This document shows, one piece after another, positions 1 through 18,839 of a stretch of DNA of 18,839 nt. A program made the translations under genes and the position numbers. The notes below the pieces were generated by a model, which worked only from the letters and a program-made list of their open reading frames with translations, was not told the origin of the DNA and ran no database searches. The stretch's first letter is position 1, and each line of letters opens with the position of its first letter. This DNA comes from Candidatus Hodarchaeota archaeon (GTDB lineage: Archaea; Asgardarchaeota; Heimdallarchaeia; Hodarchaeales; Hodarchaeaceae). The stretch covers positions 1-18,839 of the forward strand of contig JAHQWW010000074.1 of the NCBI GenBank assembly GCA_029856365.1. The letters run 5' to 3'.

Positions 1-651
1 AATGATAATCGACTTACTGGAATTGCACTATATAACTCTGATAATAGCACTATATCTTACAATCATGTATCGAATGGTGTAAGCGGAATTAGTCTTTCTA
101 ATTCTTTAAGGAACACACTATTGGAGAATATGATTTCAGGAAACTCTGAAGTTGGAATAACTCTTGTTGAATGTGAAGATTGCACTATCTCCAAAAATTT
201 TGTCTTCAATAATCAATTTATTGGAATTAGCCTTTATAACTCTAGAGGTCATACCCTTTCAGCTAATACTATATCCAATAATGACGGATATGGTATTTTC
301 CTTAGCTCTAATACCAATAATATCAAAATTATTAGGAATGATTTCATTAGAAACAATCCATTTGGAAGTTCTCAAGCATGTGATGATGGAAATGGACAAA
401 ATAATACATTCTCCCATAATTTTTGGGAAGATTGGACAAACCCAGATGCAGATTCAAATGGAATTGTCGATGAACCATATTTCATTGATGGGCAAGCAGG
501 TAATAGTGATTTACATCCTCAAACTTTGTTTATTCCCCTCAGGCGTGGTACCACATTCAGATTTAGTTCAAATATTATCTTTGGAACCATTATGTTGTTA
601 CTAATCTTAAGTGCGCTCTTCGTGTCAATACGAAAACAAAAAACTAAATGA
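1..651 (+). CDS. 5'-partial NosD/right-handed parallel beta-helix (CASH-repeat) surface protein with C-terminal membrane anchor
   Basis: Frame 1 is open from base 1 (NDNRLTGIALYNSDNSTISYN...), so the TTG at 121 is not the true start. Repeated GIxLxxSxxNTIxxN beta-helix units, a NosD-type tail (NFWEDWTNPDADSNGIVDEPY with a DxDxNG loop), then a hydrophobic helix IIFGTIMLLLILSALFVSI and basic tail RKQKTK. Confidence 0.85.
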   Translation, partial: NDNRLTGIALYNSDNSTISYNHVSNGVSGISLSNSLRNTLLENMISGNSEVGITLVECEDCTISKNFVFNNQFIGISLYNSRGHTLSANTISNNDGYGIFLSSNTNNIKIIRNDFIRNNPFGSSQACDDGNGQNNTFSHNFWEDWTNPDADSNGIVDEPYFIDGQAGNSDLHPQTLFIPLRRGTTFRFSSNIIFGTIMLLLILSALFVSIRKQKTK

Positions 652-921
652 ATGGTTTTCTACTATAAAGATGTTATTTGGAATCATCCTCTTACAATCA
701 GTTATGATAAAAGAATTTAACACTGGCCAATATCCGTATGTTGTTCTAACGCGACAAACACCTCATTTTTTCAGAAATCTATATAGGTTGCCTTAAAGAA
801 CCTTATTCTACCTCACAATTGAAATTAAAAATTATTTTTCCTTAGTTTTAAAAACGTAAAATTAAAAGCATTCATATTAATCTCACTAATCTACTTCTGT
901 ATCCAAAGGCTGTGAAATTTC

Positions 922-2319
922 GTGATAGTTGTTTTTAATGAGAATCAAACACAATCATTTCTCCCGTTAGTTGATGCTCATACCCACATAGGTCGAGTAA
1001 AAATTGAAACTACGAAGGGTACTTCTCAACGAGTTAATAGGCCCCTAGATATTATTAACCTTTATGAAAAATTGCAGTACGAGATTCACAAACGCATTTT
1101 ACAAAATCAATCAGATTATTATGTAACATTACCTCCAGTAGGAGAACTTTCGCGAGCACTTTATCCGATGACAAGGAAATTATTGGATTTTAAAAGCTCA
1201 AAACCTAGAGGGTGGATTGTAGATCACATCGTTTGTTTTCCGTTTAATGACATTTTCCATAAAAAAACCAATCCAAAATTTGTGAAAAGTAATGAATATG
1301 TTCGTCATCAAACTCAATCCTTTGATTTTTCTTTTCGTTTTATACCGTTTTGCCGCGTCGATGCAACTGATGAAGGTGCAGCGGAAGAAGTCAGGAAATC
1401 TGTTGCTTTCGGAATGAGAGGACTGAAACTCCATCCCATGTCACAAGGTTGGATTGAGAGGATTATGTCAACCAACTGTAAAGATATCTTACAAACAGCT
1501 GGAGAACTTTCAATTCCAATCATTTTTGATGTTCCTAATAAAGGAGTAGCTGTTGACATAACCACAATTGCAGAAGAGGCACGACAAGAAGTTGATTTTC
1601 CAATCAATGTCGTCTTAGGTCATTCTGCTTTTGACTATAACTCAGAAGAAATCTTTGAATGTTTAACAAAAGACGGAATGTTTGCTGAAACGTCAGGAAT
1701 GAGAGGAAAAGATGTTGAGATTTATTTCAACAATCTTGTAAAGGTAGATGGATGGGAGGAGAAAATATTGTTTGGGACAGATTCAAATTACTTTGGTGTC
1801 TTACAAGCAGCTGATTTCATTACTTTTCTTTTATCAAAGAAGTTTAAAGAGCTCATTGAAAATAATGGCTCTGATATTGAACCATTAGCAGCAGCAGGAA
1901 GAATACTCGGTGGTAATGCTCTTAGAATTATTCCCCCTTCTTGGTTTGATAATAAACTAATTACCCCAAATAGACATCGTTCAAGATCTAAAGGATATTC
2001 AGCCGATTTACCGATTTTACAATCAAATTTGAAAAAAATTCTAACAAAACGGAATAACACTGGAACAATTGATCTTGCTAAACCACGGAACAAGGACTTT
2101 TCAATTCAAGTTTTAACTATTGGGCATGTAGACCAAAAATTTTCTTATATTCTTGAAACTAAGGACAATTATCAAAAAATTACACTCAGTCCGATATCTA
2201 ATCTTGATAGAATTAATGATTTACCCATAAAATCGCTAAGTCCTGTTGAATTGATCTCTAAATCGCGGAGAAGAAGATCACGTTTAAAAGAACAGACATT
2301 TCTTGAATTGTTGGGGTGA
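922..2319 (+). CDS. Amidohydrolase superfamily metal-dependent hydrolase (Amidohydro_2-like TIM barrel) with about 125-aa C-terminal extension
   Basis: Motifs VDAHTH (HxH), RFIPFCRVD, GMRGLKLHP, IPIIFD, VVLGH, ETS, KILFGTD and ILGGNALRI occur in the canonical order. Confidence 0.88.
   Translation: MIVVFNENQTQSFLPLVDAHTHIGRVKIETTKGTSQRVNRPLDIINLYEKLQYEIHKRILQNQSDYYVTLPPVGELSRALYPMTRKLLDFKSSKPRGWIVDHIVCFPFNDIFHKKTNPKFVKSNEYVRHQTQSFDFSFRFIPFCRVDATDEGAAEEVRKSVAFGMRGLKLHPMSQGWIERIMSTNCKDILQTAGELSIPIIFDVPNKGVAVDITTIAEEARQEVDFPINVVLGHSAFDYNSEEIFECLTKDGMFAETSGMRGKDVEIYFNNLVKVDGWEEKILFGTDSNYFGVLQAADFITFLLSKKFKELIENNGSDIEPLAAAGRILGGNALRIIPPSWFDNKLITPNRHRSRSKGYSADLPILQSNLKKILTKRNNTGTIDLAKPRNKDFSIQVLTIGHVDQKFSYILETKDNYQKITLSPISNLDRINDLPIKSLSPVELISKSRRRRSRLKEQTFLELLG
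2313..2319 (+). promoter_or_regulatory. Shine-Dalgarno-like GGGGTGA containing the amidohydrolase stop codon (translational coupling to the ligase)
   Basis: GGGGTGA lies 5 nt upstream of the in-frame GTG at 2325. GGTGA is the typical archaeal anti-16S match. Confidence 0.5.
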
Positions 2320-5297
2320 ATCACGTGAGTACTAAAGACTACTCGTTTAAAACAGAATTGTATTTCACTCATGGTATTGAAATTGAGAACCATCTTGTTT
2401 CCCGAAAGACTGGCGAAGTTATTGTGGGAGATATGCTATTATCCGCTTGGAATAAGATGTTTGAGGGTGCATCAGTATATTTATTAAAATTAAAAAAGGA
2501 TAAGAAAACCCCAAAGGAAATATCCAAAAGAATTGAAAAAGTAGAAGTCAAAGAGGAAATTAAGAGGGAACGAAAACTCAAATTCATTTTCGTGAACTAT
2601 AAACTAGGAAAAAAAATCGTTCGAGTTAATGTGTTTGGCCCAGATCCTAATATTGGGCAAATTACTTGGTTACTCGAGCTGGTAACTCCTCCTTGTGAGT
2701 ATTTAGAAGAGTTAGATTGGTGGATTGATACATTATTTGCCGCTGGGATTCAAGGACTACCCCCTGATGTTGCTCTACTTCCAATTGGATTAAATCCAAC
2801 AGAAAAAAGAGTAAGAAGTGGATTGACATGTGGAGAACATCATCATATTGGGATGAGTAAGCAAATACGTATTCCAATCTATAATATGTTGAGAAATTTT
2901 GTTCCCCATTTAATCGCTCTTAGTACAACATCACCATTTTTAGATAAAAAACCAAGTAGTAAGGTTCTAATTCGAAAAAGCAATGGGAAAGAACAAATTA
3001 TTGGGAGATGTGTCCATTCGTACCGGTTACTGAAAAATAGTGGTCAAATGGGGCCAAATATACCTTCATATTTACCAGTATTGGATAACAAGTCTACTAG
3101 AATGGATTTCGCCAAATCAGTTAGAAAAACTCCTCCAGATGACCGAATGGTTGACTTATATCCTTTTACTGATTACTCTACAATAGAGATCCGTTTCTTT
3201 GACGCTCAACCTTGGCCTGAGATCCGCTTGGCCATTGTACTTTTGATTCAAGCTCTTGCACAAAAAACTAAGAATTTAATTGAAAATAATGAAAAAGTCC
3301 CAAAAGTTGCATCAGAATGCCTTTACGAAAACCGAAGGAAATCTGTACAGTTTGGTTTACTCGCTCAATTTACCACTGATAATTGTTTGGACGATGACTT
3401 CTCCAAATTCTATAATTATGATATTACAACAGGTAAAAAAGCTTCAAAGCTAATGCATTCCATAAAATCTTTGTTAGTCTATGTTCAGCATGAGCTTAAG
3501 GGACTTGGATCGGAGTTGGAAAATTACTTACTAATTCCTATCCTTGGTTCTAATGATTATAATCCACCTCTTACTGTAACAGAATATCTGCTTTCTTTAT
3601 ACAAAGCATCTGGTGAAAGTATTTCATTCCTACCAAATTTGTATTACAACCAAGAAAATAGTTACCCATTAGTTGTTGATGGTGATTATTCTTCTCTTCA
3701 ACAAGTTGGAATAAAGGATGTTTTTGAAGTAAAAGACACAGAATCGTCCCTCCATCAATCATTACGTAAAGATCTAGCCAAACGGAAAATTTCAGTACCA
3801 AAAGTAACTAAAGAACCAGTAAAACCAAAGAAGAAGCCCCCCAAGAAACTACCTGAAAAAAAAGTCCCTCGGAAAAAACCAAAGAGAAAGAAAGTTGAGA
3901 AACCTATTGTAACACCCTCAATTAAGGTTGAGAAACCACCAACTTTAGCTAAAACAGAATTAAAGGCTAGAACATCCGTTTCTAAACCAATCCCAACTCC
4001 TGTTGAAGAACCAATTGAAACAGCAGAAGAAGAAATTAAAATCTCTGCTTTTGAAAATAGCGAGGATCTTGAAGTATTCTCACCAACCATAGAGGTTGAA
4101 GCTAAATACCAGAAAATTGAATCAAAGATTGCAAATGTCATGAGAACTCGACGTAAAGAAATTGAAGTAAAAAGGCGAGAGTTTTTCATTGAACATCTCA
4201 AGAAAGAACGTGTGGTATTTAAGCCCTCTCCAAAGAAGGTTTCTGCAATCTTCCCATCTTTAGTTTCTGGATCTGAAGTATTCGGATATATTGAGCTCAG
4301 TTTTCGTGATGTTAAACGAGCAATGTATAAATTTCGAAATAATCCTATATCCTTAATATTTAATGCCAAAGAAAAAGGAAAACCAGTAGAGTCTAAGATA
4401 AACACCTCAATAGACATATCAAGTCTTGAAGAAAGAGGAATGACTAGAATTCCATGTTCAATAAACCTTGGTGAATTGTATGGGGAAATAACTGTGAATG
4501 TGGAGGCTGTTACTGCAACAAATGAAAGTCTATTACCAAAAAAATTTTCATTTGTTTTAACTCGAAAAGATGAATTAGCAATTAATCCAAAGGAATTCTA
4601 TGTTACAGGGAATTATGGTCTTGTAGAGTGTATTTTTCAAGCAGTTAATGAATCAAAGGATTCAGAAAAAGGAGAACTCGAAGTATTCCTCGTGACTCAG
4701 GCTTTAACAGATCCAGTCTCAATATATTACACAAAATTTAACTTAAAACCAAAAGAAAATCTAGAACTAGCTCGGAGTATCGACTTATTAATTAATTATC
4801 AACATACTCCTTTTTACATTGTATCTCAAATCACAATCGGACGATTTAAGAAGAATAGGTCATTTAAAACAATTGGGCCAATAAAACCACTGAAAGAAAT
4901 ATGTGTCGATTGGAATTTCTCAGTAGACCCAACAAAAAGAACTAATCTCTGGGAAGGAGTAGAACCAAAAAAGCAGTATGAAGTGAACTTTGTATTTTAT
5001 TTTATTAAATCAATGCCGTATGCAACTATAACAATTCATGTGAATACTCTCCCTGGGGGCCAAACAAAACGATTAGCAAATTTTCGGATTAAAAGAGACA
5101 TAGATGCTGGGGATGAATTCGTCATCCCAAATATTAAGTTTAAAACACCGAAGGATTGTGGCTATCTCTATTTTGATGTTGAAATACGAAACGAAATGGG
5201 ATTAATTCCATTAGATCTCATTTCTGATCCAATTGGAGTTCAAAGTAAAGGTGAACAGGCAGCTACATATGAGGAGAGACTTGATTTGACTTTATAA
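2316..5297 (+). CDS. Carboxylate-amine ligase (glutamate--cysteine ligase GCS2/YbdK/amidoligase fold) fused to a Lys/Pro-rich linker and a beta-rich C-terminal region
   Basis: N-terminal motifs THGIEIE, LELVTPPC, GLNP, TCGEHHHIG, LIALSTTSPF, SYR and TIEIRFFD match the GCS2/YbdK catalytic set (ExE, E, HxH, R, ExR). The GTG at 2316 overlaps the upstream TGA. An in-frame GTG at 2325, preceded by GGGGTGA, is an equally likely start. Confidence 0.82.
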   Translation: MNHVSTKDYSFKTELYFTHGIEIENHLVSRKTGEVIVGDMLLSAWNKMFEGASVYLLKLKKDKKTPKEISKRIEKVEVKEEIKRERKLKFIFVNYKLGKKIVRVNVFGPDPNIGQITWLLELVTPPCEYLEELDWWIDTLFAAGIQGLPPDVALLPIGLNPTEKRVRSGLTCGEHHHIGMSKQIRIPIYNMLRNFVPHLIALSTTSPFLDKKPSSKVLIRKSNGKEQIIGRCVHSYRLLKNSGQMGPNIPSYLPVLDNKSTRMDFAKSVRKTPPDDRMVDLYPFTDYSTIEIRFFDAQPWPEIRLAIVLLIQALAQKTKNLIENNEKVPKVASECLYENRRKSVQFGLLAQFTTDNCLDDDFSKFYNYDITTGKKASKLMHSIKSLLVYVQHELKGLGSELENYLLIPILGSNDYNPPLTVTEYLLSLYKASGESISFLPNLYYNQENSYPLVVDGDYSSLQQVGIKDVFEVKDTESSLHQSLRKDLAKRKISVPKVTKEPVKPKKKPPKKLPEKKVPRKKPKRKKVEKPIVTPSIKVEKPPTLAKTELKARTSVSKPIPTPVEEPIETAEEEIKISAFENSEDLEVFSPTIEVEAKYQKIESKIANVMRTRRKEIEVKRREFFIEHLKKERVVFKPSPKKVSAIFPSLVSGSEVFGYIELSFRDVKRAMYKFRNNPISLIFNAKEKGKPVESKINTSIDISSLEERGMTRIPCSINLGELYGEITVNVEAVTATNESLLPKKFSFVLTRKDELAINPKEFYVTGNYGLVECIFQAVNESKDSEKGELEVFLVTQALTDPVSIYYTKFNLKPKENLELARSIDLLINYQHTPFYIVSQITIGRFKKNRSFKTIGPIKPLKEICVDWNFSVDPTKRTNLWEGVEPKKQYEVNFVFYFIKSMPYATITIHVNTLPGGQTKRLANFRIKRDIDAGDEFVIPNIKFKTPKDCGYLYFDVEIRNEMGLIPLDLISDPIGVQSKGEQAATYEERLDLTL

Positions 5298-5316
5298 TTA
5301 AAGAGTCAGATTTTTT
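5284..5316 (+). terminator. Possible terminator: weak hairpin plus T-tract after the ligase gene
   Basis: ATTTGACT (5284-5291) pairs with AGTCAGAT (5304-5311) with one G-U pair, and a T6 tract lies at 5311-5316. Confidence 0.35.
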
Positions 5317-5399
5317 CGAAATAAAATTAGCTTAAAAAAGATTAAGAATACTGATGTAGAATTATGTTAGTTAATTATTAAATTTAAAGAGGCTTAATC

Positions 5400-6680
5400 A
5401 TGGTTAAACTTAATGTTGTAAATGTTGGGAAAATCGAAGGTCGTGCATATTTACATCCGTCTGACATTAGTAACATTGGTGTTGAAGAATTTGATTTCGT
5501 CAAAATTTCAACAGAATGGGAAGACTGGGGAGCTGTTCAAATCCTATCATCTGATGAAGTTGCCAAGGGAACAATTGCTGTTGATGATAGTGTGTTAAAT
5601 TCAGCTAATATTTCTGATGGAGATACATGTGAAGTAGAACCTACAATAATCGCTGCAGGTATTAAATCAATTAAACTAGGCATTGAACCACTAGCTGGCC
5701 AAGAGGTAGAGGAAGCAATCTTGTGGATTGCTACTGAATTTGAAGAATTATCAACTGTACTTCGAAATAGGCCAGTATTTAACGGATTACAGATCGCTTG
5801 GGAAGACTGCCCGATAGGCAGCATAACAGTTCGATTCATGGGTTCGGAACCAGCCATTCAAGAGGGTGAGATTGGTATTGTTGATCCTACTGGTCGTGAA
5901 GTTGAAATCAACATCATTCCGTTCACTGAAATGAGCTTCAATGCGGTACTTGTTTTAGATGTTTCTGGGAGTATGCAGAAGAAAGATATGAAGGTTAAAA
6001 ATATTAGTGGCGCGTTAGAAGGGCTTAAAAAGGGTTTAGAGGAAACTGGTGAGTTAAATGCCTTTATTGAGAAGTTTGAGGAAGGCAAGAAAGTATCCCG
6101 TGTAGACGCTGCTGCGATGGCAATAATGCTCTTCATGTCTCTTAAAATAGCTAAAGGATGGGGAGAGCAGGTGCAGCTTATTACTTTCTCTGGTGATGTA
6201 GAAAAGTTTGCTTTAGGTGATTCTCAAGTCATTTCTTGCGTTGGTGAAACCAAGAAAGCTGGAATTGAAAGCATCATTGGTCATGTTGTTCAAAAAACTG
6301 CAGAAAGCTCTGGTCTTACTTTCCTCAGTGGAGCTCTTAATGATGCGTATAAAAGTATTGAAAACTTTGAAGTAAATCCAACGATAAACAAACGAAATCC
6401 AACAATGATCGTGGTTTTAACCGATGGCAATCCCAATAAAGGTGATGGATTAGGAGTCAATCCAATACCAGTTGTTAGAAATCATGTAGAAGCAACTCCT
6501 GAAGTCGTTCTTTATGCAATAGGACTTGGAGAAGCTGACAGATTGATGCTTCGTCGGGTAGGGGAAATTGGTAGGGGTGGATCATTGATGGCGGATGATC
6601 TTGAAACACTCATCGATTTCTATGATTCATTGGCCCAGAATTTCCAGATGGTAGTAAAAATGAAGAAACAAGAAGAGTGA
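5400..6680 (+). CDS. Cdc48/VAT/NSF N-domain-like module fused to a MIDAS-containing vWA domain (no AAA+ ATPase domain)
   Basis: Residues ~1-175 show two double-psi-barrel repeats (RAYLHPSDISNIGVEEFDFVKI; GTIAVDDSVLNSANISDGDTCEV) followed by a Cdc48 Nc-type subdomain (LRNRPVFNG...ITVRFMGSEP). The vWA part has VLVLDVSGS (DxSxS), LITFS, GLTFLSGAL, VVLTDG and LYAIGLG. No Walker A motif is present. Confidence 0.8.
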   Translation: MVKLNVVNVGKIEGRAYLHPSDISNIGVEEFDFVKISTEWEDWGAVQILSSDEVAKGTIAVDDSVLNSANISDGDTCEVEPTIIAAGIKSIKLGIEPLAGQEVEEAILWIATEFEELSTVLRNRPVFNGLQIAWEDCPIGSITVRFMGSEPAIQEGEIGIVDPTGREVEINIIPFTEMSFNAVLVLDVSGSMQKKDMKVKNISGALEGLKKGLEETGELNAFIEKFEEGKKVSRVDAAAMAIMLFMSLKIAKGWGEQVQLITFSGDVEKFALGDSQVISCVGETKKAGIESIIGHVVQKTAESSGLTFLSGALNDAYKSIENFEVNPTINKRNPTMIVVLTDGNPNKGDGLGVNPIPVVRNHVEATPEVVLYAIGLGEADRLMLRRVGEIGRGGSLMADDLETLIDFYDSLAQNFQMVVKMKKQEE

Positions 6681-8782
6681 TAGCCATGATGACACGAAAG
6701 GGCAGCTTACTAATTTTTATCATATTATTTCTTGGATTATCTCTAATTACATTTAGATTAAGCTTTCTCTCATCATCAAATGTCTCAACAAAATTTCGAG
6801 TGGATAGCATAACTAGACCAGTCGTGTTTGTCGACTTTGGACATGGAAATACTTATTATAACGAAATGAATGGAATCATAACTAATTTAACCGCTTGGGG
6901 GTATGATGTAATTAGAGGAATCGAAGTTTTCTCTGAAGAGGTTCTTAGTGATGTTGATATTATGATGATAGCCGCTCCTGCTAGTGAGAATAACAATTTT
7001 ACTACTACTGAGCTTGCAGCTATTCGAGCTTGGTTTGATTCAGGTGATAAAAGTATTTGGGTTGCGGGAGACTCTGATTACTTTACTTCTGCTCCAATTA
7101 AGCACGCAAATGCAATTCTCGAAGCCATTGATTCAACTATCTACTGTGAATCAGGGGCAATTGAGTCAAAGACAAATACTGGGGCAGTTTATCGTGTATT
7201 AGCCCCTGATTTTAATACTAGTCATCCTATCTGTCAAGGAGTAGAACATGTAGGTGAGATAGATGGAGTTCTCTTTCATGGCCCTTGTCCAGTAATAGGG
7301 TTTAATGGAACTGACTATGTTGCACTTGAAGAAGAAGAGAACATTCCTGACAATGTTCAAATCATCGTACAATGCAACGGAACTAATAATGCTTCTTGGT
7401 ATCGTAGGTGGTCTGAAAGATTAGGGTATGAAGTTCATCAATTGGGTGCCAACGCTTCATACGTTATGATGGCTATTGAAACAAATGCAGGAATTGCAGG
7501 TACAGGGACAATTATCGTTTCAGGTGAAGTTATTTGGAGTGATTATAAAATAATGTTTGCTCCACCTCCAGATTACCTTGAAAACAATGGAATTCATGTT
7601 GACAACTACATTATTGTTAAAAATACCCTCCATTGGCTAGAACCACCACCTCCTGGCCCTGGAGCTGTTATTAAAGGAGAAATTCCAATTGAAATTTTTA
7701 ATTTCATCGCTTATGGCGATACCCGAGGTGAGGACTATGGTTTTGGGGATGCTGGGGAATTGCATCAAGACATTGTCAATAGATACATGCTTTGCACTCC
7801 TGAATTAGTACTCCACACTGGCGACATGGTTTGTCAAGGTGGGAGATATGAAGAGTGGGAACCGTTTAATCAATCAATAGCCCCTGTTTGGGATGCTGGA
7901 ATCCCCTTCTATGGTGCTATTGGTAACCACGAAAAATACCTTGATAAAGGAGTTTTTGAAAATTATACGCGTTTCTTCGATTACTCGGCTGTAATTGATA
8001 CACCAGGAGAAAATGAAAGATGGTATTCGCTTGATTATGAAGGTGTTCACTTCATCAGTCTTAATACTGAAGAATATTTTGCCAGTGGAGAATTTATCTG
8101 CTCTACCGATCAGATGGATTGGCTTCTTTTTGATTTAAGCACTACCCAAACAGAAGATATCATTGTTGTGATGTTTCATCGGCCATGTTATTCAGTCACC
8201 CTAGGAAGTCCTTATCGTGAAGCTGAAGCAGTTACTATTCAAGATGCCTTTCATGACCTCTTCATTCAATATGATGTAGACGTTGTATTCAATGGTCATA
8301 ACCATTATTACTATCGGACTCTTCGTAATAGTATCTATTATGTGACAACTGGTGGAGGTGGTGCTCCCCCTGCGCACATTGATACCACTTGCAGTACGTG
8401 GCAAGAAGGAGATGTTGGATACACTGAATATCATTTCTGTAATGTCATGATTAATTCTACTAATATTGTAGTTGATGTCAGAACACTAAATGGATCTTCT
8501 TTAGATTTTTTTACTATTGATCCACTGAGTTCAGGTACCATCATCACCGAGGAAACGACTACTGAGGTTGACACCACTGAAAAAATTACTACTGATGAAA
8601 CTACCGATGGAGAAACCTCAACAACTACCCAACAGGATATAGAAACAAGTACACAAGAAACCACAAAGGATCAAGGTGAACCTCCGAAGATAACTCCAGG
8701 GATGACAATAACAACTACCATTCTTGTTATGGTTTTAATTAGTTCAATAATTACATTGAAACGAAAGAAAAAGCAATTCTAA
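6677..8782 (+). CDS. Secreted, membrane-anchored protein: GIFT/DUF4350 (GATase-I-like) domain + calcineurin-like metallophosphoesterase + Thr/Glu-rich stalk + C-terminal sorting/TM segment
   Basis: Signal peptide RKGSLLIFIILFLGLSLI; likely start is ATG 6686 or 6689 after GAGTGA. The N domain has VFVDFGHGN, LSDVDIMMIAAP and FTTTELAAIRAWFDSG..IWVAGD. Phosphoesterase motifs are YGDTR, HTGDMV, IGNHE, MFHRP and NGHNH. It ends in a TTEETTT-type linker and TPG-hydrophobic-KRKKK. Confidence 0.85.
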   Translation: MIAMMTRKGSLLIFIILFLGLSLITFRLSFLSSSNVSTKFRVDSITRPVVFVDFGHGNTYYNEMNGIITNLTAWGYDVIRGIEVFSEEVLSDVDIMMIAAPASENNNFTTTELAAIRAWFDSGDKSIWVAGDSDYFTSAPIKHANAILEAIDSTIYCESGAIESKTNTGAVYRVLAPDFNTSHPICQGVEHVGEIDGVLFHGPCPVIGFNGTDYVALEEEENIPDNVQIIVQCNGTNNASWYRRWSERLGYEVHQLGANASYVMMAIETNAGIAGTGTIIVSGEVIWSDYKIMFAPPPDYLENNGIHVDNYIIVKNTLHWLEPPPPGPGAVIKGEIPIEIFNFIAYGDTRGEDYGFGDAGELHQDIVNRYMLCTPELVLHTGDMVCQGGRYEEWEPFNQSIAPVWDAGIPFYGAIGNHEKYLDKGVFENYTRFFDYSAVIDTPGENERWYSLDYEGVHFISLNTEEYFASGEFICSTDQMDWLLFDLSTTQTEDIIVVMFHRPCYSVTLGSPYREAEAVTIQDAFHDLFIQYDVDVVFNGHNHYYYRTLRNSIYYVTTGGGGAPPAHIDTTCSTWQEGDVGYTEYHFCNVMINSTNIVVDVRTLNGSSLDFFTIDPLSSGTIITEETTTEVDTTEKITTDETTDGETSTTTQQDIETSTQETTKDQGEPPKITPGMTITTTILVMVLISSIITLKRKKKQF

Positions 8783-8869
8783 AGATTTAAAGTTCTGAAC
8801 AGCTAGAATGAACATGTCCTCTATTGAGAGAAGTGGTTATTCTAACCGCAACGGAAAAATGTGGGTTAG

Positions 8870-9265
8870 ATGTCATTAACTGAACTTCATTTACTTCTTT
8901 TAAAATTCATTCAATACTGCAATGACCTTAGTGATGACGCTCTCTTTGTCGTTGAAGGGAAAAAAGATACCTACACTCTACGCTTATTAGGTTTGACGGG
9001 GATAATCATTGAGAAGGGGCAAAAATCTCTTAATAAATTAGTTGATACGGTTTTTCAAGCTCCTATAATTGTAATTCTGACAGACTTCGATCGGAAAGGT
9101 AAATACTTGCGTAAAATTATTGGTAGAGAGATCCAGCAAAGAAAAGGGCATGGTAGAATCGATAATTACGCCAGACAACTTCTTTATAAGTTTTGTAGAG
9201 CCTATAGAATCACTGAAATCGAGGATCTTGATCGTTTTGCATCTAATGCTCAAGTAAAAAGCTAG
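8870..9265 (+). CDS. Small stand-alone TOPRIM domain protein (RNase M5/primase-like, archaeal UPF0292-like)
   Basis: TOPRIM motifs VVEGKKD and LTDFDRKG in a 131-aa protein ending EIEDL. Confidence 0.85.
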   Translation: MSLTELHLLLLKFIQYCNDLSDDALFVVEGKKDTYTLRLLGLTGIIIEKGQKSLNKLVDTVFQAPIIVILTDFDRKGKYLRKIIGREIQQRKGHGRIDNYARQLLYKFCRAYRITEIEDLDRFASNAQVKS

Positions 9266-9320
9266 GAAGGATGTTTTTCAAGTAGCTTCTTAAATGACAT
9301 AAAAGTCTTATATGCAATAA

Positions 9321-9334
9321 TTTTTATTTTTTTT
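9321..9334 (+). terminator. Archaeal-type oligo-T terminator candidate after the TOPRIM gene
   Basis: TTTTTATTTTTTTT about 55 nt downstream of the stop codon. Confidence 0.4.
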
Positions 9335-9418
9335 ACCAAGTTCTTTGCTTTATTCTGTTTATAATCCTAGTAACACAGCAGAAAGATCTATATTTGGAAT
9401 TCAAATTACGAGATGTAA

Positions 9419-10498
9419 ATGATGCAGGCTATAATGAAGACAAAAGAGGAAAAAGGATTTGAAATTCGAGAAGTTCCCGAACCAGAGATAACTCATGCTA
9501 ATGAAGTTAAAATTAAAGTTGATGTTGCTTCCATCTGTGGTACAGATCATCATATGTGGGAGTACGACCAATGGGCTCAAAAGCGATTACCTCCAGCTAT
9601 CCCATTTATCGCTGGTCATGAATTGGGAGGAGAGGTTATAGAAATTGGTCCTGATGTCAAAAACCTTCAGATAGGGAACAAAGTTTCACTGGAGTGTCAT
9701 GAGGCTTGTGGTACTTGTTATCAATGTCGAAGTGATCGTATGCACATTTGTCGATATACTAAAATTTTTGGGGTTGATAAAGATGGTATATTCACAGAGT
9801 TTACTGTTGTCCCCGAACTTAATTTGGTAAAAAATGATGCTAATCTTGATCCCGCTCTAGCTTCTCTTCAAGACCCCCTAGGAAATGCAGTCCATACAGT
9901 TTTTCCCAAGGGTTTAACTGAAGATGAAGGGATTGCTGGTAAAAACGTTTTCATAACTGGGTGTGGACCTATAGGATTAATGGCTATTCCAGTTGTGAAA
10001 TCATTTGGAGCAGCACAGGTCTTTGCTAGTGGCGGAGGTAGAAATTTACTAAGACTCGACATGGCTAAAAAATTAGGAGCAGATATGGTTCTTAATGCCC
10101 GTGAAGAAGAAGATATTCCCAAAATCATCAGGGACACAACTGATGGAAATGGTGTTGATATCCTTCTAGAGATGTCTGGTAATGTTCACGCTCTACGCCA
10201 GGGTTTAGAAGCATTAACACTAGGTGGGCGTGTTTCCTTATTAGGCTTCTTCCCTGGCCCAATCGAATTTGATATTAATTCGCTAATGATAAGTAAAGGT
10301 GCTAGTATATATGGAATTGCTGGTAGGCGTATGTTTGAAACATGGCAAGTGATGGGAGGAATTTTGAAGTCTAAAGAATTTCAGGATCAGCTAAAGAAAT
10401 TAATAACACATCGGGTCAATATGAAAGATTGGGAAAAGGGAATGATCGAAATCGATGAAAAGAGAGCTGTAAAAGTTGTTATGGATCCGTTCAAATGA
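9419..10498 (+). CDS. tdh: L-threonine 3-dehydrogenase (Zn-dependent medium-chain dehydrogenase)
   Basis: ICGTDHH, GHE, structural Zn motif CGTCYQC...C, DPLGNAVHT, GCGPIG, LEMSGN and GIAGRRMFETW. The last two are characteristic of Tdh. Confidence 0.9.
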   Translation: MMQAIMKTKEEKGFEIREVPEPEITHANEVKIKVDVASICGTDHHMWEYDQWAQKRLPPAIPFIAGHELGGEVIEIGPDVKNLQIGNKVSLECHEACGTCYQCRSDRMHICRYTKIFGVDKDGIFTEFTVVPELNLVKNDANLDPALASLQDPLGNAVHTVFPKGLTEDEGIAGKNVFITGCGPIGLMAIPVVKSFGAAQVFASGGGRNLLRLDMAKKLGADMVLNAREEEDIPKIIRDTTDGNGVDILLEMSGNVHALRQGLEALTLGGRVSLLGFFPGPIEFDINSLMISKGASIYGIAGRRMFETWQVMGGILKSKEFQDQLKKLITHRVNMKDWEKGMIEIDEKRAVKVVMDPFK

Positions 10499-10508
10499 TT
10501 CTCGGAGA

Positions 10509-10808
10509 TTATTTTCCTAAAAGTCGTCTTAACAACCCTTTCTTCTTGAAATGTTTATGCCATTGCCGAAGAATTTCATCACTGCAGTCATAAGGGCCAG
10601 TTAATGCATAGAATTCAATTCCTGCATTCACAGCAAGTTTTCTTAAATATTCACGATCGAGTTGAGATTCATTAATTTCAATAACTTTCAGTTTCTTCCC
10701 GACGTTGAAAAAAGTTAAGCGATAACCCTCTTTAGTCCTTTGCATTTCACAATAGTGATTTCGACTAGAAGGAACCTGAAATCTAGTTTTTTCGTTTTTA
10801 ACTAACAT
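10509..10808 (-). CDS. Hypothetical 99-aa protein with a C-terminal amphipathic helix (KKKGLLRRLLGK)
   Basis: Fills the gap between tdh (convergent, 10 bp apart) and the divergent solenoid gene. ATG start and ordinary globular composition. Confidence 0.7.
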   Translation of the reverse strand: MLVKNEKTRFQVPSSRNHYCEMQRTKEGYRLTFFNVGKKLKVIEINESQLDREYLRKLAVNAGIEFYALTGPYDCSDEILRQWHKHFKKKGLLRRLLGK

Positions 10809-11002
10809 AGAATCACAGTTGAACCATTAATCTAAAAATATTTGTGCATGTTTACACGCTTTAACTAAATAAACTTCATTTTTGATTTTTTTTCATGTTC
10901 GATAACAATAAAAAATAACCATTTAGCTATTATTGCAAAGAAAAAAAGTAATAAGTACTGGCTCCTTCAATAATAAATTGTGTTTAGAGGGTGGCATGAC
11001 GA

Positions 11003-14000
11003 ATGTCAGAAATTCAAAAAGAGTTATCAAAAGCTAAAACAAATGAGGATACCGGGAATTTTGAGAAAGCTGCTCAAAACTACTTCAAAGCAGCTAAGTT
11101 ATCAAATGATCTCAAACTTTACAACAAAGCCTTTTTTACAGCAAGGAAATCCGGTAGTTCTAATTTAATGTTCCAAACAGGAAAAAGCTACTATCACATG
11201 TTGGAGCAAGAAAATCAAGAAGAAAAGATTAAAGAATTGATTCCAACGTTCTTGGAAATTTCGGGTCGTGAACAAGATCGTTTGGCTGATTCCCCAAATG
11301 AAATGATTGGGGTTCTAGATTGGACTACTAAGTTATATCAATTAGTGGGGAAGACTGATGCTGCATATGATATCTCCTTACAAGCTGGAGAAACTTATTT
11401 TTCTTACGGACAACAACTTTTAACCACAAAGGTAAGACTAGGCAAGGAAGAGAAATGGCAAAGAGGATTAGAGCTGTTTGATAGTGCTATCGAAGCTTTT
11501 CAACAGATTAGGTTAGATACCCAATCGCTTGAGAAAATTCTTGAAGTTAAACTTGATAAAATAAGCAAATTAATCGACATTGGTCGTCATGTGGAAGGTG
11601 TTGAGGAGACCACAAATTTAATGGACTATTATAGATCTCAAGTGGCAGAAATTGTTCCATATTCTCATGAAGCTCTTTCTCTAAAAATTGCTAAAATCTT
11701 AGCACAAAAAAGTATTGCTGCTGCTCAAGATAAGAATTTCACCGTTTCCGAGGTGCTAATGAAGACAACAAAAGCAGGTTATGAAAATGCGGGGGAATTT
11801 ACTAAAGTTGCTCCTTATTTATGGCAATTAGCATTGATTTATGATGAATTTAATCAAAATAAACTCTTTTTTTCTCTTGTAGATGCAACATATGACACAG
11901 CTATGAAGTATCAGGATGAAACAATTCAACAAACGATTCTAAATTATCTAGACGGTCAAGCAAAAGATATCTGTTCAAAAATTATCAATTCTCGCCTTCT
12001 TATGGTCAAAAAAGGCCCAATCGAATTCCAAAACAATGAAGGGGTACAGTATCTATTAAAAAGTATGGATTTAGCTAAGAAAACCAATAATATTGAGATT
12101 CCTGACAAAACTTGCGGATTTCTCTTCCAATATGCTCAAACCATGTATGACAAGAAGTTAACAGATCATGCTTTCCCTTATTTTGAGTTCTGTGCTCAAA
12201 ATTGGTGGACCTTACAAAAAGGATCAAGTAAGACACAGGAAACCATTGACTATCTAGAATCCAAATTTGGTATTTTAATTACTGAAGGTAAGGTTAATAA
12301 AGCATCTAGACACCTAGGAACCATAATTTCGATCAAAATATTTATTGAGGAATATGAAAGTGCTGGTACTTCTGCTTTTTCATTTGCTCAATCAGCAGGT
12401 CAACAAGGAAAGCAAGAAATAGAATTAGAATTTCTGGAACGTGCTTATGATGCCTTTGTTGCTGTAAAAGCAACACTGAAATTACAAGATATGCTTAACT
12501 ATATTACCCAACAGATTGATCCATTATTCAATTTAGATTCTAAATCACAGGAACCTAGAAAGAAATTCATTCATTTAGGAGGTTTAATTGCTGCAGCGAT
12601 ATCAGAAGAGGCTCAAGGGGAATTTTTCCAGGCCACAACATTTAAAGCTCTCAATTCTGGGTTAATTGATCTAGGAATTAGCTTTGCAGATAAAACATTT
12701 GAAGTTTTGAAGAATTATGATCAGCACGCTGCTGCTGATCTTTACTTCAAAGTAGGATCTCTTTTGTTAGAAACTGATATGGAGAAAGCACTTGAATTTG
12801 TTTCGAAGTCGACGAAGTTTGCATCAGAACACGAACCTTTGAAGGAGCTGATAGAACGTAATCTTAATTATATCCAAGGAAATGCGCTTGCTAGCACAGA
12901 TTTATCCACTAAAATGTTCCTTGTAAAGAAACTGGAACTCTTATACGATATAGTTGAGAAAGGTGATGTTTTCAATGAATTCCTTTTTACTTTAACACAA
13001 AATCTTGCAGAAAATGCTAAGCAACCAGATTATTTTGCTGAAATGAAAAATCTTCTTTCTAAAACTTTTTATGGTTTCCATACTCAAGATCCTAATCATT
13101 TAAAACTTCCAGAAATCATTACGTGGACAAATAATCATATCTTGGAGGCATATTCAGATAGTGAACATGCTCAAATGTATGAGCTTGCTATCCAAAATTT
13201 AGCGTACCATGAAGAATTAAATCAAATCCAAGAGTACATTAATTTCTTTTGGACTCTTTTTAATAAATTTGTCTCTAACGAGGATTTCCCTCATGCTATT
13301 GCTTATTTCAAACAGGTTTACCAAACACTTGATCGGTTAGAGCAACCTATTGAAGTTAAAAAGGAAATCACAGAGAAAGTAGCTACATGTATAGATCGGG
13401 GTATCAAACCAAGAATAGCTGATGAAAAATTTGATGAGGCGTGGCCTATTATTGAAGGATTATTTTCAATTCTTGAGGAAGTGAGCTCGCATTCCGAAGG
13501 AATAAGCTTGTATCAAGCCAATGCTGAACTCTTCGCTCCAACTCGTTTAGATCTAGCTTTAACAATGTGGAGTCAAGCTATTGGTAAAGCTAAGACAATA
13601 AATGATAATGAAGCTATAACCGCAATGGCAAAAACCATTCTTGACGATGTTGTACCAATATATGTTGAAAGAGGAATTACTGGGGCGGTTAATCAGCTTT
13701 ATTCCCAAGCAGCCTCCGCTTATCATGCGTTAGGAAATACTGGTGCTATGTTAGATGTAATGTTAAATGCAACTAAATATAACTTATCTCTGGGTGATTT
13801 TGATGCTGTTCATGAACTAGGCAAAAAAGGGTTCGAAATAGCTATTAAATCCAATGCTGATGAATCTTTGTTCGAATTTGCAAACATGTTTTTCGCTGTG
13901 GGTAGTGGATTACTAACAGAAGATCCTGAGATTGGTGTTAAACTGATAAAAACAGCTTCAGATTATTTAGAAGATTATGGACCATCAGGATATGATCATT

Positions 14001-14485
14001 ATTGCATAAAAATGGCAGAAATTTACGAGGAATTGTATAATACTCCCTTAACACAACAAATAGCTCAAAACGAACGTGACAAGATTCTACAACATTTCAA
14101 AGATTCAGGAAGAAAAAAAGAAGAGGGCCGTTTTCTCATAAAGACCGCAAAGTTAAGTTTTCAAGCTGGCAAAATAAATGAGGGGTTAAATCTTATTTCT
14201 CAAGCAACTACTATCTTAAAAGAACTGGAAGACGAAGATGGCCTAAGTGAGATAGTAAGTACTTGTTTAAAAACGGCTGCTAACTACCGTGTTGGAACGG
14301 ATGAATATATCGCCCTTTCTCGTCATGCTGCCAGTGTGCAGGAGACAGCAACCGTTGAAATTTCTGAGGAGAAGACACAAGAAGCGTTCACTGATCTTTT
14401 TGATGGTTTATTGGATGATATGACAAGTCTAATGGATCCTAAAGAACGAGAAAGAAGAAAAAAAGAGAAGAAAAAGAGAAGATAA
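11003..14485 (+). CDS. Large all-helical alpha-solenoid protein (TPR/alpha-SNAP-like repeats)
   Basis: Recurrent helical-hairpin patterns EKAAQNYFKAAKL, KVAPYLWQLALIY, HAAADLYFKVGSLL, AVNQLYSQAASAYHALG and KEEGRFLIKTAKLSFQAG. No catalytic motifs. SD-like GAGGGTG upstream. Confidence 0.75.
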   Translation: MSEIQKELSKAKTNEDTGNFEKAAQNYFKAAKLSNDLKLYNKAFFTARKSGSSNLMFQTGKSYYHMLEQENQEEKIKELIPTFLEISGREQDRLADSPNEMIGVLDWTTKLYQLVGKTDAAYDISLQAGETYFSYGQQLLTTKVRLGKEEKWQRGLELFDSAIEAFQQIRLDTQSLEKILEVKLDKISKLIDIGRHVEGVEETTNLMDYYRSQVAEIVPYSHEALSLKIAKILAQKSIAAAQDKNFTVSEVLMKTTKAGYENAGEFTKVAPYLWQLALIYDEFNQNKLFFSLVDATYDTAMKYQDETIQQTILNYLDGQAKDICSKIINSRLLMVKKGPIEFQNNEGVQYLLKSMDLAKKTNNIEIPDKTCGFLFQYAQTMYDKKLTDHAFPYFEFCAQNWWTLQKGSSKTQETIDYLESKFGILITEGKVNKASRHLGTIISIKIFIEEYESAGTSAFSFAQSAGQQGKQEIELEFLERAYDAFVAVKATLKLQDMLNYITQQIDPLFNLDSKSQEPRKKFIHLGGLIAAAISEEAQGEFFQATTFKALNSGLIDLGISFADKTFEVLKNYDQHAAADLYFKVGSLLLETDMEKALEFVSKSTKFASEHEPLKELIERNLNYIQGNALASTDLSTKMFLVKKLELLYDIVEKGDVFNEFLFTLTQNLAENAKQPDYFAEMKNLLSKTFYGFHTQDPNHLKLPEIITWTNNHILEAYSDSEHAQMYELAIQNLAYHEELNQIQEYINFFWTLFNKFVSNEDFPHAIAYFKQVYQTLDRLEQPIEVKKEITEKVATCIDRGIKPRIADEKFDEAWPIIEGLFSILEEVSSHSEGISLYQANAELFAPTRLDLALTMWSQAIGKAKTINDNEAITAMAKTILDDVVPIYVERGITGAVNQLYSQAASAYHALGNTGAMLDVMLNATKYNLSLGDFDAVHELGKKGFEIAIKSNADESLFEFANMFFAVGSGLLTEDPEIGVKLIKTASDYLEDYGPSGYDHYCIKMAEIYEELYNTPLTQQIAQNERDKILQHFKDSGRKKEEGRFLIKTAKLSFQAGKINEGLNLISQATTILKELEDEDGLSEIVSTCLKTAANYRVGTDEYIALSRHAASVQETATVEISEEKTQEAFTDLFDGLLDDMTSLMDPKERERRKKEKKKRR

Positions 14486-14490
14486 AATCA

Positions 14491-14497
14491 TTTTTTT
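14491..14497 (+). terminator. Oligo-T terminator candidate
   Basis: T7 run 5 nt after the solenoid stop codon, with further T-runs downstream. Confidence 0.4.
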
Positions 14498-14654
14498 ACA
14501 CTCCTTTTAGAAAACGCTATCTTACCATTCCTTTTTTTCAAAACATTCTGTTGATAAATTGATAGCTTAGAATCCTTACATTTCGAGCAATATTTTTATA
14601 ATTAAGCATAAAATATCAATTCAACTTAAAATAAATAAAACAAAGGACATTTTT

Positions 14655-16079
14655 ATGACAATTGAAGAAATTAAAACTGATTATCAACCAGTTAAGTGGC
14701 AAAAAGTGTGGTGGAGCTCAATTGAATTTGGGAGTACGATTTCATCTGGGATTTTAGATACTTTCCTTGTAGCTTTTTATTTCTTTGATGTTCTTGGCGA
14801 GTACACTGGGCCAGGGGTGGTTGAGAGAATGTTCTTTATTGGAACCGTAATTTTTTTTGGAAGAATAATCCAGGGTCTTGCCAATCTTCCAGTGGCTCAA
14901 ATCTCTGATAGAATTCGGACAAGATGGGGAAGAAGAAGAGTCTTTGTATTATTTGGATCCGTTCCATGGGGATTAAGTGTTTTTATGTTATTTGGTATTC
15001 CTTCTCTGTTTCCACAGCTATTTGGAGATTCCTTAATTTTTTCGCTTGCTTGGCTTGCAATTTGGTATACATTCTACAATATTATGAATGCAGCGGTTAT
15101 TAATCCTTATTTAGCTATGTTACCAGAAATAGCTAAAGGATCTTTGGAAAGAACACGGTATCAACAATTCCGTACGCTTTTCGCGTTTCTAGGAATGGTT
15201 CTTGCCACAATTGTTTGGCCAATAGTTGGGGAAGAACTGGGTGCTCCAATAATTACCTGTTTGATGATTTTAACCGCCCTAACTATGGTTCTAGGTTCAA
15301 AGGAGGATGAGAAAGTTGAACCCACAACTATTGGTTTTAGAGAATCGGCTAACACGGTTCTGAGAAATCCTGCATTCCAGCCTTACATAGTGACGATTAT
15401 GGGGTGGACGGCTGCATCTCAGATGTTATTAGCACAACTTCCAATGGTTGTTGAAGGATTATTTGGATTAGATCTTGACTCAACAGAAACAATATCGTGG
15501 ATTGGTATTAAACCCTCTTTCTTAATGGCAATAGTCGGCGGAATCTTTATTATTACTGCAATCATAATAATTCCGTTTATTACCAAGATTCAATTACAAT
15601 TAGGTAAGAAAAAAAGCTTTCAGCTATTCATGATTCTATTTGCAGCATTTGCTTCCAGTATAGCCTTTCTGGGTTTTCTACCAGGCACACCATCAGCTGG
15701 TACAGATGATTACTATCGAATTATCTTTTTTCATCTTGTCATCAGCATCCTACTAACTGGAATCCCGGTAGGTGGCTTTGTGGTTTTACTATATTCTGTT
15801 TTTTCTGATGTTATTGATAATGATCATTATGGTGATCAAGAAAGACGAGAATCCATGTATTTTGCTGTGCAAGGAGTATTAGATTGGGGCGCTGCTAGTG
15901 CTGGAGCATTGATTATGGGTTTAATTTTAGCAATATTCGGAACCTCTGACTTTGGAGGAGTAGAAGATGCAGGAATTTTAGGAACTGGAAGTCTTGGAAT
16001 AAGAATTGTTGTGTTAGTTGCTGCAGCAATCATGGTTTTTGCTAGTTGGTGGTTCAGAAAATACCCATTAGAAGGTTAA
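14655..16079 (+). CDS. MFS transporter, glycoside-pentoside-hexuronide (GPH/MelB-like, MFS_2) family
   Basis: About 12 hydrophobic segments, with ISDRIRTRWGRRR, NPYLAMLPE..ER, LGKKK, SDVID and RRESMYF motifs typical of GPH symporters. Confidence 0.88.
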   Translation: MTIEEIKTDYQPVKWQKVWWSSIEFGSTISSGILDTFLVAFYFFDVLGEYTGPGVVERMFFIGTVIFFGRIIQGLANLPVAQISDRIRTRWGRRRVFVLFGSVPWGLSVFMLFGIPSLFPQLFGDSLIFSLAWLAIWYTFYNIMNAAVINPYLAMLPEIAKGSLERTRYQQFRTLFAFLGMVLATIVWPIVGEELGAPIITCLMILTALTMVLGSKEDEKVEPTTIGFRESANTVLRNPAFQPYIVTIMGWTAASQMLLAQLPMVVEGLFGLDLDSTETISWIGIKPSFLMAIVGGIFIITAIIIIPFITKIQLQLGKKKSFQLFMILFAAFASSIAFLGFLPGTPSAGTDDYYRIIFFHLVISILLTGIPVGGFVVLLYSVFSDVIDNDHYGDQERRESMYFAVQGVLDWGAASAGALIMGLILAIFGTSDFGGVEDAGILGTGSLGIRIVVLVAAAIMVFASWWFRKYPLEG

Positions 16080-16169
16080 TTCAAATCATTGAGTATTTTT
16101 GTATGAAAGATCTAATAATAAACTGCTAGATTTAGCAAATACATAGGGTTAATTGCAAGTGATTTTATT

Positions 16170-16682
16170 GTGAAGAATCAGAGAATTTTAAAGCAACTTA
16201 AAATGTGTGGTATTTCCAAAGGAGTATGGATTGATGCTGGATGTGGGAGAGGAACCTATACTCTCCCATTAGCGAAGTTAGCATCTCAGGTCATTGCAAT
16301 AGACAAAAATCCATATGATATTTCCTTCCTTAAAGCTAAACTCTCATCACCAGTCAATATAGTAGCTTTGGAAAAAGATTTCAATCAAGAACCTCTTTTC
16401 TATGATTTAGTTGATGGGGTATTATTCGGATTCTCATTGCATTATGAACACAGTCCAACTAAAGCATTACAAAACGCTTTCAATCAACTGAAATCCAATG
16501 GCATAATCATTATTTTTGAATATACCCATGAAAAACCACTACCTTGGGTACCGTATCCAGTTCCAAAATCATTATCAATTAATTTGCTTGAAAAAATCGG
16601 ATTTAGGGAAATAGAAACTATCTTACAAGATTCACGATTTTATATTATTCGTGGAAAAAAATCTTCAATATTACTTTCTTAA
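16170..16682 (+). CDS. Class I SAM-dependent methyltransferase
   Basis: Motif I WIDAGCGRG, VIAID, VDGVLFGFSLH and LKSNGIIIIFEY. Confidence 0.85.
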   Translation: MKNQRILKQLKMCGISKGVWIDAGCGRGTYTLPLAKLASQVIAIDKNPYDISFLKAKLSSPVNIVALEKDFNQEPLFYDLVDGVLFGFSLHYEHSPTKALQNAFNQLKSNGIIIIFEYTHEKPLPWVPYPVPKSLSINLLEKIGFREIETILQDSRFYIIRGKKSSILLS

Positions 16683-16683
16683 C

Positions 16684-17103
16684 TTACAATTTCATTGGCA
16701 TAACTGTAGCTTTACCGTCCACAACCAGTTCATTATCTTGATTTATACAAGTTGTCTTCAATATTACGCTTTCTTTTTCATCATCTTTATCTATCACTTC
16801 CACTGCTACAGTAATGGCATCTCCTATACGAATAGGCCTTTTAAAAATTATTTCTTGCTTTAGATATATACTGCCTGGTCCTGGAAGTTTACTTGCTAGT
16901 ACTGTTGAAATAAAGGCAGCAGAAAGCATTCCATGGGCTATCCGCCCTTGAAAGAATGTTTTCTTTGCGAATTCTTCGTCTAAATGAATTGGATTTCTGT
17001 CTCCACTAACTTCAGCAAATTTTTTTATATCGTCCTCGGTTACAGTTCTTACCAGTTCAGCTTTTTGGCCAATTTTTATCTCGGAATAACTTAAATTAAC
17101 CAT
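16684..17103 (-). CDS. MaoC-family dehydratase ((R)-specific enoyl-CoA hydratase, PhaJ-like hotdog fold)
   Basis: Hydratase-2 motif FAEVSGDRNPIHLD, plus RIAHGML, LPGPGSIY and FKRPIRIGD. Confidence 0.92.
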   Translation of the reverse strand: MVNLSYSEIKIGQKAELVRTVTEDDIKKFAEVSGDRNPIHLDEEFAKKTFFQGRIAHGMLSAAFISTVLASKLPGPGSIYLKQEIIFKRPIRIGDAITVAVEVIDKDDEKESVILKTTCINQDNELVVDGKATVMPMKL

Positions 17104-17149
17104 CTTATCATCTCAATTAAGACATAAGTAAGATAAATTGTTCTATGAG

Positions 17150-18838: not shown

Positions 18839-18839
18839 G

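Follow-up and report, generated by a model that had tools for sequence, protein, structure and literature searches.

The window analysed here is a stretch of 18,839 nucleotides from a Candidatus Hodarchaeota archaeon (GenBank assembly GCA_029856365.1, contig JAHQWW010000074.1, positions 1 to 18,839), in which three neighbouring genes encode a metal hydrolase-like protein (AH), a protein of the carboxylate-amine ligase type (LIG), and a protein combining a p97/Cdc48-type N domain with a vWA (von Willebrand factor A) domain, called the N-vWA protein below. This trio of genes is apparently a conserved, undescribed unit. The literature searches, which did not cover the possibly relevant Iyer et al. 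2009, found no description of the trio, and it is not covered by Makarova and Koonin 2010 on FtsZ-like/vWA operons. New here are the predicted contact between the ligase and the N domain, the bacterial counterparts, the occurrence in a Hydrothermarchaeota genome, and a caution on the chemistry of the hydrolase.

The three genes and their protein domains

The features of the locus are collected in Table 1. A first-pass annotation had described three co-oriented genes, the first two overlapping by GTGA, and the open reading frame (ORF) list bears this out: the AH stop and the GTG start of LIG share these letters at 2316-2319, with a second in-frame GTG 9 nt downstream. A spacer of 102 nt separates LIG from the N-vWA gene. 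The hairpin region at this junction folds no better than shuffled sequences (z -1.38), and the consensus sigma-70/terminator scan, which is unsuited to archaea and whose counts lie at shuffle level, made no call there; the N-vWA gene may still have a transcript of its own. The contig has a low GC content (32-40%), and the genome encodes a single copy of each of the three genes. The labels of close homologues (Hodarchaeales, Heimdallarchaeota, or Promethearchaeota) mark the source as an Asgard archaeon.

Table 1. Positions of the three genes, their domains and the candidate terminator in the window
Feature	Nucleotides	Residues	Strand	Basis
AH, putative metal hydrolase (465 aa)	922..2319		+	ORF list
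AH TIM barrel, Amidohydro_2 fold		14-340	+	Pfam and model
AH extras: long N-terminal beta-hairpin; C-terminal alpha/beta domain		about 359-424 (C-terminal domain)
LIG, putative ATP-dependent amide ligase (993 aa)	2316..5297		+	ORF list
LIG catalytic domain, YbdK/GCS2-type carboxylate-amine ligase	2316..3710	1-465	+	Pfam, NCBIfam, alignment
LIG linker, Lys/Pro-rich block then acidic block	3723..4112	~470-600	+	Translation, cross-lineage composition
LIG C-terminal beta-rich region, lineage-variable	4113..5297	~600-993	+	Structure leads
AT-rich hairpin (11 bp, 5283-5313) then T6, candidate terminator between LIG and the N-vWA gene	5283..5318		+
N-vWA protein, p97/Cdc48-type N domain and vWA domain (426 aa)	5400..6680		+	ORF list
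N domain, double-psi barrel and second subdomain, no ATPase attached	5400..5933	1-178	+	Model, fold search
vWA domain, intact metal ion-dependent adhesion site (MIDAS) D187-x-S189-x-S191, T307, D342	5934..6680	179-426	+	Pfam, alignment

The domain matches by sequence are weak but agree with one another. LIG matches the GCS2 family (Pfam ID PF04107) with an E value of 1.7e-4 (21.5 bits, cut-off 21) and YbdK-type NCBIfam models with an E value of 6.5e-17, far under their equivalog cut-offs (61 versus 371 bits). Because the match to TIGR02050 (E value 1.9e-16) scores 60 bits against 176, LIG is, judged from its sequence, a member of the GCS2/YbdK superfamily and not a YbdK orthologue; ligases of the LIG type make up a clade of their own, with about 90 clusters at E<=1e-30. 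The residues E24, E121 (in ELVTPPC), H175, H177, E291, and R293 are invariant among eight divergent homologues, so that the expected metal/ATP motifs, namely the strand-1 Glu pair, the ELV-type Glu, HxH, and ExR, are retained. An ATP-dependent amide-forming enzyme of the glutamine synthetase (GS)/GCS fold, as the first-pass annotation had proposed, is consistent with these family matches and motifs, and ATP-dependent amide formation is the predicted activity. Compared with the YbdK/GCS2 ligases (PF04107; E. coli YbdK, PDB ID 1r8g; Salmonella, PDB ID 1tt4), the trio ligases share the catalytic domain and keep its metal, ATP, and HxH motifs, whereas they carry 100 to 3300 extra residues and are always accompanied by a hydrolase and an N-vWA protein.

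The part of LIG beyond the catalytic domain varies strongly. The linker is found in some lineages only, and the C-terminal region probably folds into tandem immunoglobulin (Ig)-like sandwiches of the CARDB/Big/MG2 kind, as indicated by structure leads from the Atlas (template modelling (TM) scores of only 0.3-0.45) and a weak MG2 match in the orthologue of family f11. Across lineages the ligase occurs as a form of ~570 residues with no extra domain (family f14), as a membrane-anchored form of 704 residues, and as giant proteins of 2232-3804 residues. In the giant ligase-family proteins (P0159, P0171, and the gene at 8001-16223 of L028) the catalytic domain lies near the C-terminus, accompanied by coiled coils. 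One of the giant ligase genes has two vWA genes and an Amidohydro_2 gene around it. The ~500 extra residues of LIG, which had been taken at first pass as hard to explain for a simple gamma-glutamylcysteine synthetase, are lineage-variable and absent from the ~570-residue f14 ligases, and hence are not core to the chemistry.

AH scores just under the cut-off of Amidohydro_2 (Pfam ID PF04909; E value 1.1e-5, 25.8 versus 26.4 bits), and phmmer found no match for it among PDB sequences. Its structure model, with a predicted local distance difference test (pLDDT) score of 89.4, superposes on PDB ID 4dlf with Z 23.0 and a root mean square deviation (rmsd) of 2.9 Å over 246 aligned residues, and structure comparison gives Z 20-22 to ACMSD, LigI, gamma-RSD, and IDCase, with Z 21-23 to structures of the Amidohydro_2 family. 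The features of the Amidohydro_2 branch are present, that is, the (beta/alpha)8 barrel, the HxH of strand 1, and the Asp of strand 8. Since the metal and catalytic residues are invariant (D18, H20, H22, K169, H171, H234, and D287) or nearly so (D203) among 36 homologues, AH looks catalytically active.

The N-vWA protein reaches 27.4 bits against CDC48_N, under the Pfam cut-off of 35.1, and the Pfam search finds no ATPase domain in it. An Atlas feature search (0.81) gave only a lead to the N domain, which a fold search then confirmed. The model of residues 1-178 (pLDDT 88) matches the p97 N domain (PDB ID 5glf_E) with TM scores of 0.72/0.76 over 178 columns in Foldseek, and the CDC48A N domain with Z 16.2 and rmsd 3.2 Å, aligning 164/182 residues; the Z scores to the N domains of PEX1 and VAT are 15.2 and 13.7. 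On the strength of this model, residues 1-178 are a complete N domain of the p97/Cdc48/NSF/PEX1 type. The barrel also resembles the N domain of archaeal AMP phosphorylase (PDB ID 4ga5, Z 14.5), and the NCBIfam AMP_phos model matches residues 3-104. Both subdomains known from p97/Cdc48/VAT, NSF/Sec18, PEX1/6, and UFD1 are present (Z 13-16), whereas in the trio the N domain belongs to no AAA+ ring and shares its chain with a vWA domain, and its predicted partner is the ligase.

The vWA domain matches VWA_2 with an E value of 3.4e-8 (34.5 bits, Pfam cut-off 27). Of the MIDAS residues, D187, T307, and D342 never vary among ten divergent homologues, and S189 and S191 hardly do. The combination of a Cdc48-type N domain and a MIDAS vWA domain read from the sequence at first pass thus agrees with the fold matches to p97 and CDC48A and with the conserved MIDAS residues. 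The acidic C-terminus QEE was considered as a substrate tail and ruled out, as it is not conserved. The f14 vWA protein has ~300 additional residues; a domain exchange with the ligase tail of Hodarchaeales was considered for them, for which BLASTP found nothing, and they are a Pro/Gln-rich linker that joins the N domain to the vWA domain.

Co-occurrence, linkage and fusions across Asgard archaea

Co-occurrence was assessed by profile searches of 200 sampled Asgard genomes, grouped into families labelled f1, f3, f4, and so on. Ligase, hydrolase, and vWA genes are found in 9, 8, and 7 of the 10 genomes of f1, in 35/35/35 of the 43 genomes of f11, and in 38/39/39 of the 40 genomes of f14, with counts of 3/3/3 in f4, 5/5/5 in f12, and 6/6/6 in f23. 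The same searches detected none of the three genes in f3 (21 genomes), f5 (7), f17 (19), and f24 (7), so that a family has either the whole set or nothing of it. The few count mismatches that were inspected lie at contig ends (e.g., genome G008), and each trio gene occurs in 59/85 high-quality genomes. Roughly half of the Asgard genomes sampled keep the trio, among them those of Hodarchaeales, an order often placed closest to eukaryotes.

The gene order changes between lineages. The source organism and its genus have AH>LIG>vWA, and f4 has AH>LIG with the vWA gene 6 kb off, among genes for phosphofructokinase (PFK) and methionyl-tRNA synthetase (MetRS). In one f4 locus (L009) the stretch from the vWA gene to the AH-LIG pair holds the gene (1476-2498) of a Ras-family small GTPase of 340 residues, a typical eukaryote-like gene of Asgard archaea. 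Freyarchaeota and Jordarchaeales have AH>vWA with a convergent LIG, and f14 has LIG>AH with the vWA gene 10-40 kb away; a paralogous LIG>AH pair occurs in a congener of the source organism. Proteins of 501-506 residues upstream of the Freyarchaeota and Jordarchaeales ligases were considered as hydrolase paralogues and rejected (13-14% identity, coiled-coil-like). Of the conserved adjacency and co-occurrence in archaea that the first-pass annotation had proposed as a check, co-occurrence was found among the 200 Asgard genomes, and linkage outlasts rearrangement. The trio is not strictly confined to Asgard archaea, since a Hydrothermarchaeota metagenome-assembled genome has ligase, vWA, and Amidohydro_2 genes as direct neighbours.

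Two kinds of fusion join the components. P0172 (962 residues) consists of a full N-vWA protein followed by a ligase domain, and ORFs of 878-893 residues in f23, f11, and Thorarchaeota-type genomes fuse an AH-like domain to N-vWA. The AH part of these latter fusions lacks H20, H171, H234, and D287, whereas all stand-alone AH proteins keep the catalytic residues. No AH-ligase fusion was found among the 150 best ligase relatives.

Predicted ligase-N-domain contact and bacterial counterparts

One pair was modelled as a complex, the ligase domain with the N-vWA protein, from shallow alignments that we built ourselves. The prediction scored 0.66, compared with 0.00 for the best of three controls; the score mark used is reached by 58/80 solved complexes and 2/110 mismatched pairs. 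The runs have at least 73% of their contacts in common, with a partner pLDDT of at least 82. On the N domain the predicted contacts involve residues 40-43 and 66-75, and on the ligase residues 338-352 and 377-378, an interface that takes in the family-invariant residues R340, G347, and F352 of LIG and G74 of the vWA protein, while the MIDAS residues lie outside it. The ligase domain is thus predicted to dock onto the N domain, and a cofactor-binding p97/Cdc48 N domain without an ATPase would here apparently be used to hold an amide ligase. Taking together the co-occurrence, the linkage despite gene shuffling, the two kinds of fusion, and this predicted interface, AH, LIG, and the N-vWA protein very probably form a functional unit or complex.

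Bacteria have distant GCS2 ligases that carry from one to three fused Cdc48N-type barrels (CDC48_N 55-62 bits) and match the Asgard ligases with E values of about 1e-11 to 1e-15. A Verrucomicrobiota operon (L038, 578-14672) encodes Cdc48N-type barrels on two GCS2 ligases, on a transglutaminase-like peptidase, on a vWA protein, and on two unassigned proteins, and further encodes GATase_4, a third GCS2 ligase, and GGACT. A second, unrelated contig (L039) repeats the core of this operon, and on another bacterial contig a GGACT>GCS2 pair adjoins a CDC48_N-only protein. These operons resemble the trio in having a GCS2-clade ligase, a Cdc48N-barrel-vWA protein, and accompanying hydrolases, whereas the hydrolases have Ntn, papain-like, and GGACT folds and not the Amidohydro_2 fold, the enzymes themselves bear the barrel, and the sequences have little similarity to those of the Asgard proteins. 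Operons of this type may fall within the subject of Iyer et al. 2009 (Mol Biosyst 5:1636). Other distant GCS2-type ligases (P0230, P0245, and P0248) carry one or two cold-shock domains (CSD), a hint that one branch of the family is associated with nucleic acids.

GGACT and GATases of the EgtC type are enzymes that cleave gamma-glutamyl amides. By analogy, bacterial operons that combine ligases with a transglutaminase-like peptidase, GGACT, and GATase_4 fit the writing and erasing of an amide, and we favour a gamma-glutamyl-type chemistry on a peptide or protein because of these activities and the papain-like peptidase in the distant relatives. The bacterial operons also offer more tractable organisms for a first test.

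Candidate functions and neighbouring genes

We propose that AH, LIG, and the N-vWA protein would be subunits of one complex. The ligase, of the GS/GCS2 fold, would activate a carboxylate with ATP and join it to an amine, while the p97-type N domain would dock on the helical subdomain of the ligase. The MIDAS of the vWA domain, left free by this contact, could bind an acidic residue on a client or on the hydrolase, and the hydrolase might associate through the N-vWA protein and reverse or process the product. By analogy with the bacterial operons, the substrate would most likely be a peptide, a protein side chain, or a protein-tethered group, which would receive a gamma-glutamyl-type amide mark. 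The giant coiled-coil ligases (2232-3804 residues), the membrane anchor, and the Ig-like tails likewise point to a macromolecular setting. We give such a macromolecular write/erase mechanism somewhat less than an even chance.

A more specific form of this proposal, less likely than not, is that the trio would give Asgard archaea a protein-marking system, so far undescribed and independent of ubiquitin, in which a GS-fold ligase held by the free-standing N domain would attach a gamma-glutamyl or amino-acid mark to clients captured by the MIDAS and a TIM-barrel metalloenzyme would unmark them. If so, it would be an ancient relative of the bacterial Cdc48N-barrel ligase/peptidase systems, the N domain would have had a pre-AAA+ role as an enzyme-docking module, and a new post-translational modification system would stand beside the known ubiquitin-like systems of Asgard archaea. 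Pupylation by PafA/Dop offers a parallel in its combination of a GS-fold amide ligase and a second enzyme that may reverse the bond, with proteins as a possible target, whereas the putative eraser of the trio is a TIM barrel and Dop is a paralogue of PafA. None of the trio proteins has a Pup_ligase match in Pfam or NCBIfam at E<=0.01.

Several observations weigh against a macromolecular write/erase mechanism. No tag gene, Pup-like or other, no proteasome gene, and no fourth component shared between lineages was seen in the loci read, nor did BLAST of the larger flanking ORFs show a tag gene or such a component, small ORFs not having been searched for. Of the reversible protein-tagging module proposed at first pass, the unit and its domains are supported and the tag is not. 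The amide-hydrolysing eraser of that annotation rested on the name of a Pfam family: the solved structures that AH matches best comprise lactonases, decarboxylases, and hydratases next to uncharacterised proteins, the top 50 include no amidase, and because of these close solved relatives the activity of AH cannot be read from its fold. The match between the bacterial and Asgard N-vWA proteins is weak and covers the vWA part alone (hhalign probability 25%), and the ligase-N-domain interface expresses model confidence derived from shallow alignments. In FluG, finally, an amidohydrolase-fold domain and a GS-like gamma-glutamyl ligase are joined in one chain, both active sites being needed, and a small gamma-glutamylated intermediate has been proposed for it (PMC6478659).

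The FluG/NodGS case bears on a role in small-molecule metabolism, in which the ligase would amidate a metabolite by way of a transient gamma-glutamyl (or similar) handle and the hydrolase would act on this metabolite or its precursor, while the N-vWA protein only scaffolds or regulates. FluG/NodGS, whose substrate is likewise unknown, also joins a TIM barrel of the amidohydrolase superfamily to a GS-fold ligase, but this ligase is GSI/PauA-like and not GCS2, the two parts form a single protein, and no partner of the N-vWA kind is described for it (PMC6478659). The characterised close structural relatives of AH all act on small molecules, as do the nearest named ligase families, YbdK and GCL, and the f14 ligases lack any extra domain. 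Ligase/hydrolase handling of gamma-glutamyl metabolites is known in an analogous form from PuuA/PuuD and EgtA/EgtC. A dedicated subunit with a p97-type N domain and a MIDAS, present in every lineage and fused to either enzyme, would however be unusual for a two-step metabolic pair, and the dead-hydrolase-vWA paralogues, the giant coiled-coil ligases, and the bacterial transglutaminase-like peptidase suit macromolecular clients better. We regard a metabolic role as a possibility that is on balance unlikely; if the trio does handle a metabolite, it would represent a new pathway with an unusual scaffold. A place in biological conflict, with the ligase modifying an invader or a host target in a defence or mobile-element system, seems improbable. 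The P0172 fusion gene (L027, 1-10889, at a contig end) does adjoin genes for Mom, three N6/N4 methylases, TGT-like, QueC, and QueF proteins, together with Ogg-like glycosylase, TIR, and SLATT genes, a region that is an island of the DNA-modification or defence type and possibly a mobile element or virus; a divergent version lies near BrxL and AAA genes, one bacterial relative is near a Prim-Pol gene, accessory domains are strongly variable, and paralogues are common. Against this, PADLOC-DB 2.0 gives no match for any of eight window proteins, AH, LIG, and N-vWA included, the trio of Hodarchaeales and f4 lies among housekeeping genes (PFK, MetRS, and alcohol dehydrogenase) with synteny across genus and family, the genes are single-copy in the source genome, and the family-level pattern looks inherited and not patchy within families.

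Two further explanations concern what the N-vWA protein would do. It could read a tag and pass tagged proteins on to Cdc48 or the proteasome, given that p97/Cdc48, UFD1, and PEX1 use the same N fold to bind cofactors and ubiquitin-like domains and that vWA domains serve as proteasome or AAA+ adaptors. This link, drawn in the first-pass annotation, finds no counterpart in the loci read, where the trio has no conserved neighbour gene for Cdc48, the proteasome, or another AAA+ protein; because the N domain is predicted to sit on the ligase, and the bacterial barrels are fused directly to ligases and to a peptidase, it has the look of a docking module internal to the unit, which leaves a hand-over to Cdc48 or the proteasome very unlikely. 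Equally doubtful is a maturation or self-modification machine, in which the ligase and the N-vWA protein would modify or metallate the hydrolase, or each other. The invariant Lys169 beside the AH metal ligands and the description of FluG-type homologues with a carbamylated lysine speak for it, and the vWA proteins CbbO, NorD, and CoxE do act in enzyme activation. No MoxR-type ATPase accompanies the trio, however, GS-fold ligases are not known to mature or metallate an enzyme, and the dead-hydrolase fusions would be left purposeless.

The gene that follows the trio (6677-8782, 701 residues) has a GTG start overlapping the N-vWA stop and encodes a Metallophos protein, which is secreted or membrane-anchored; its hydrophobic segment is N-terminal and its transmembrane anchor C-terminal, and it has a Thr/Glu-rich stalk. 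The gene was considered as a fourth member of the trio and ruled out, as it is absent at that position in relatives. Within the genus only, the trio is syntenic with genes for a 1160-residue protein with a weak tetratricopeptide repeat signal (11003-14485) and a PRK04017-like Toprim protein of 131 residues (8870-9265). In one congener, an AMP/thymidine-phosphorylase-like gene lies 3' of the vWA gene (L017, 5431-6951).

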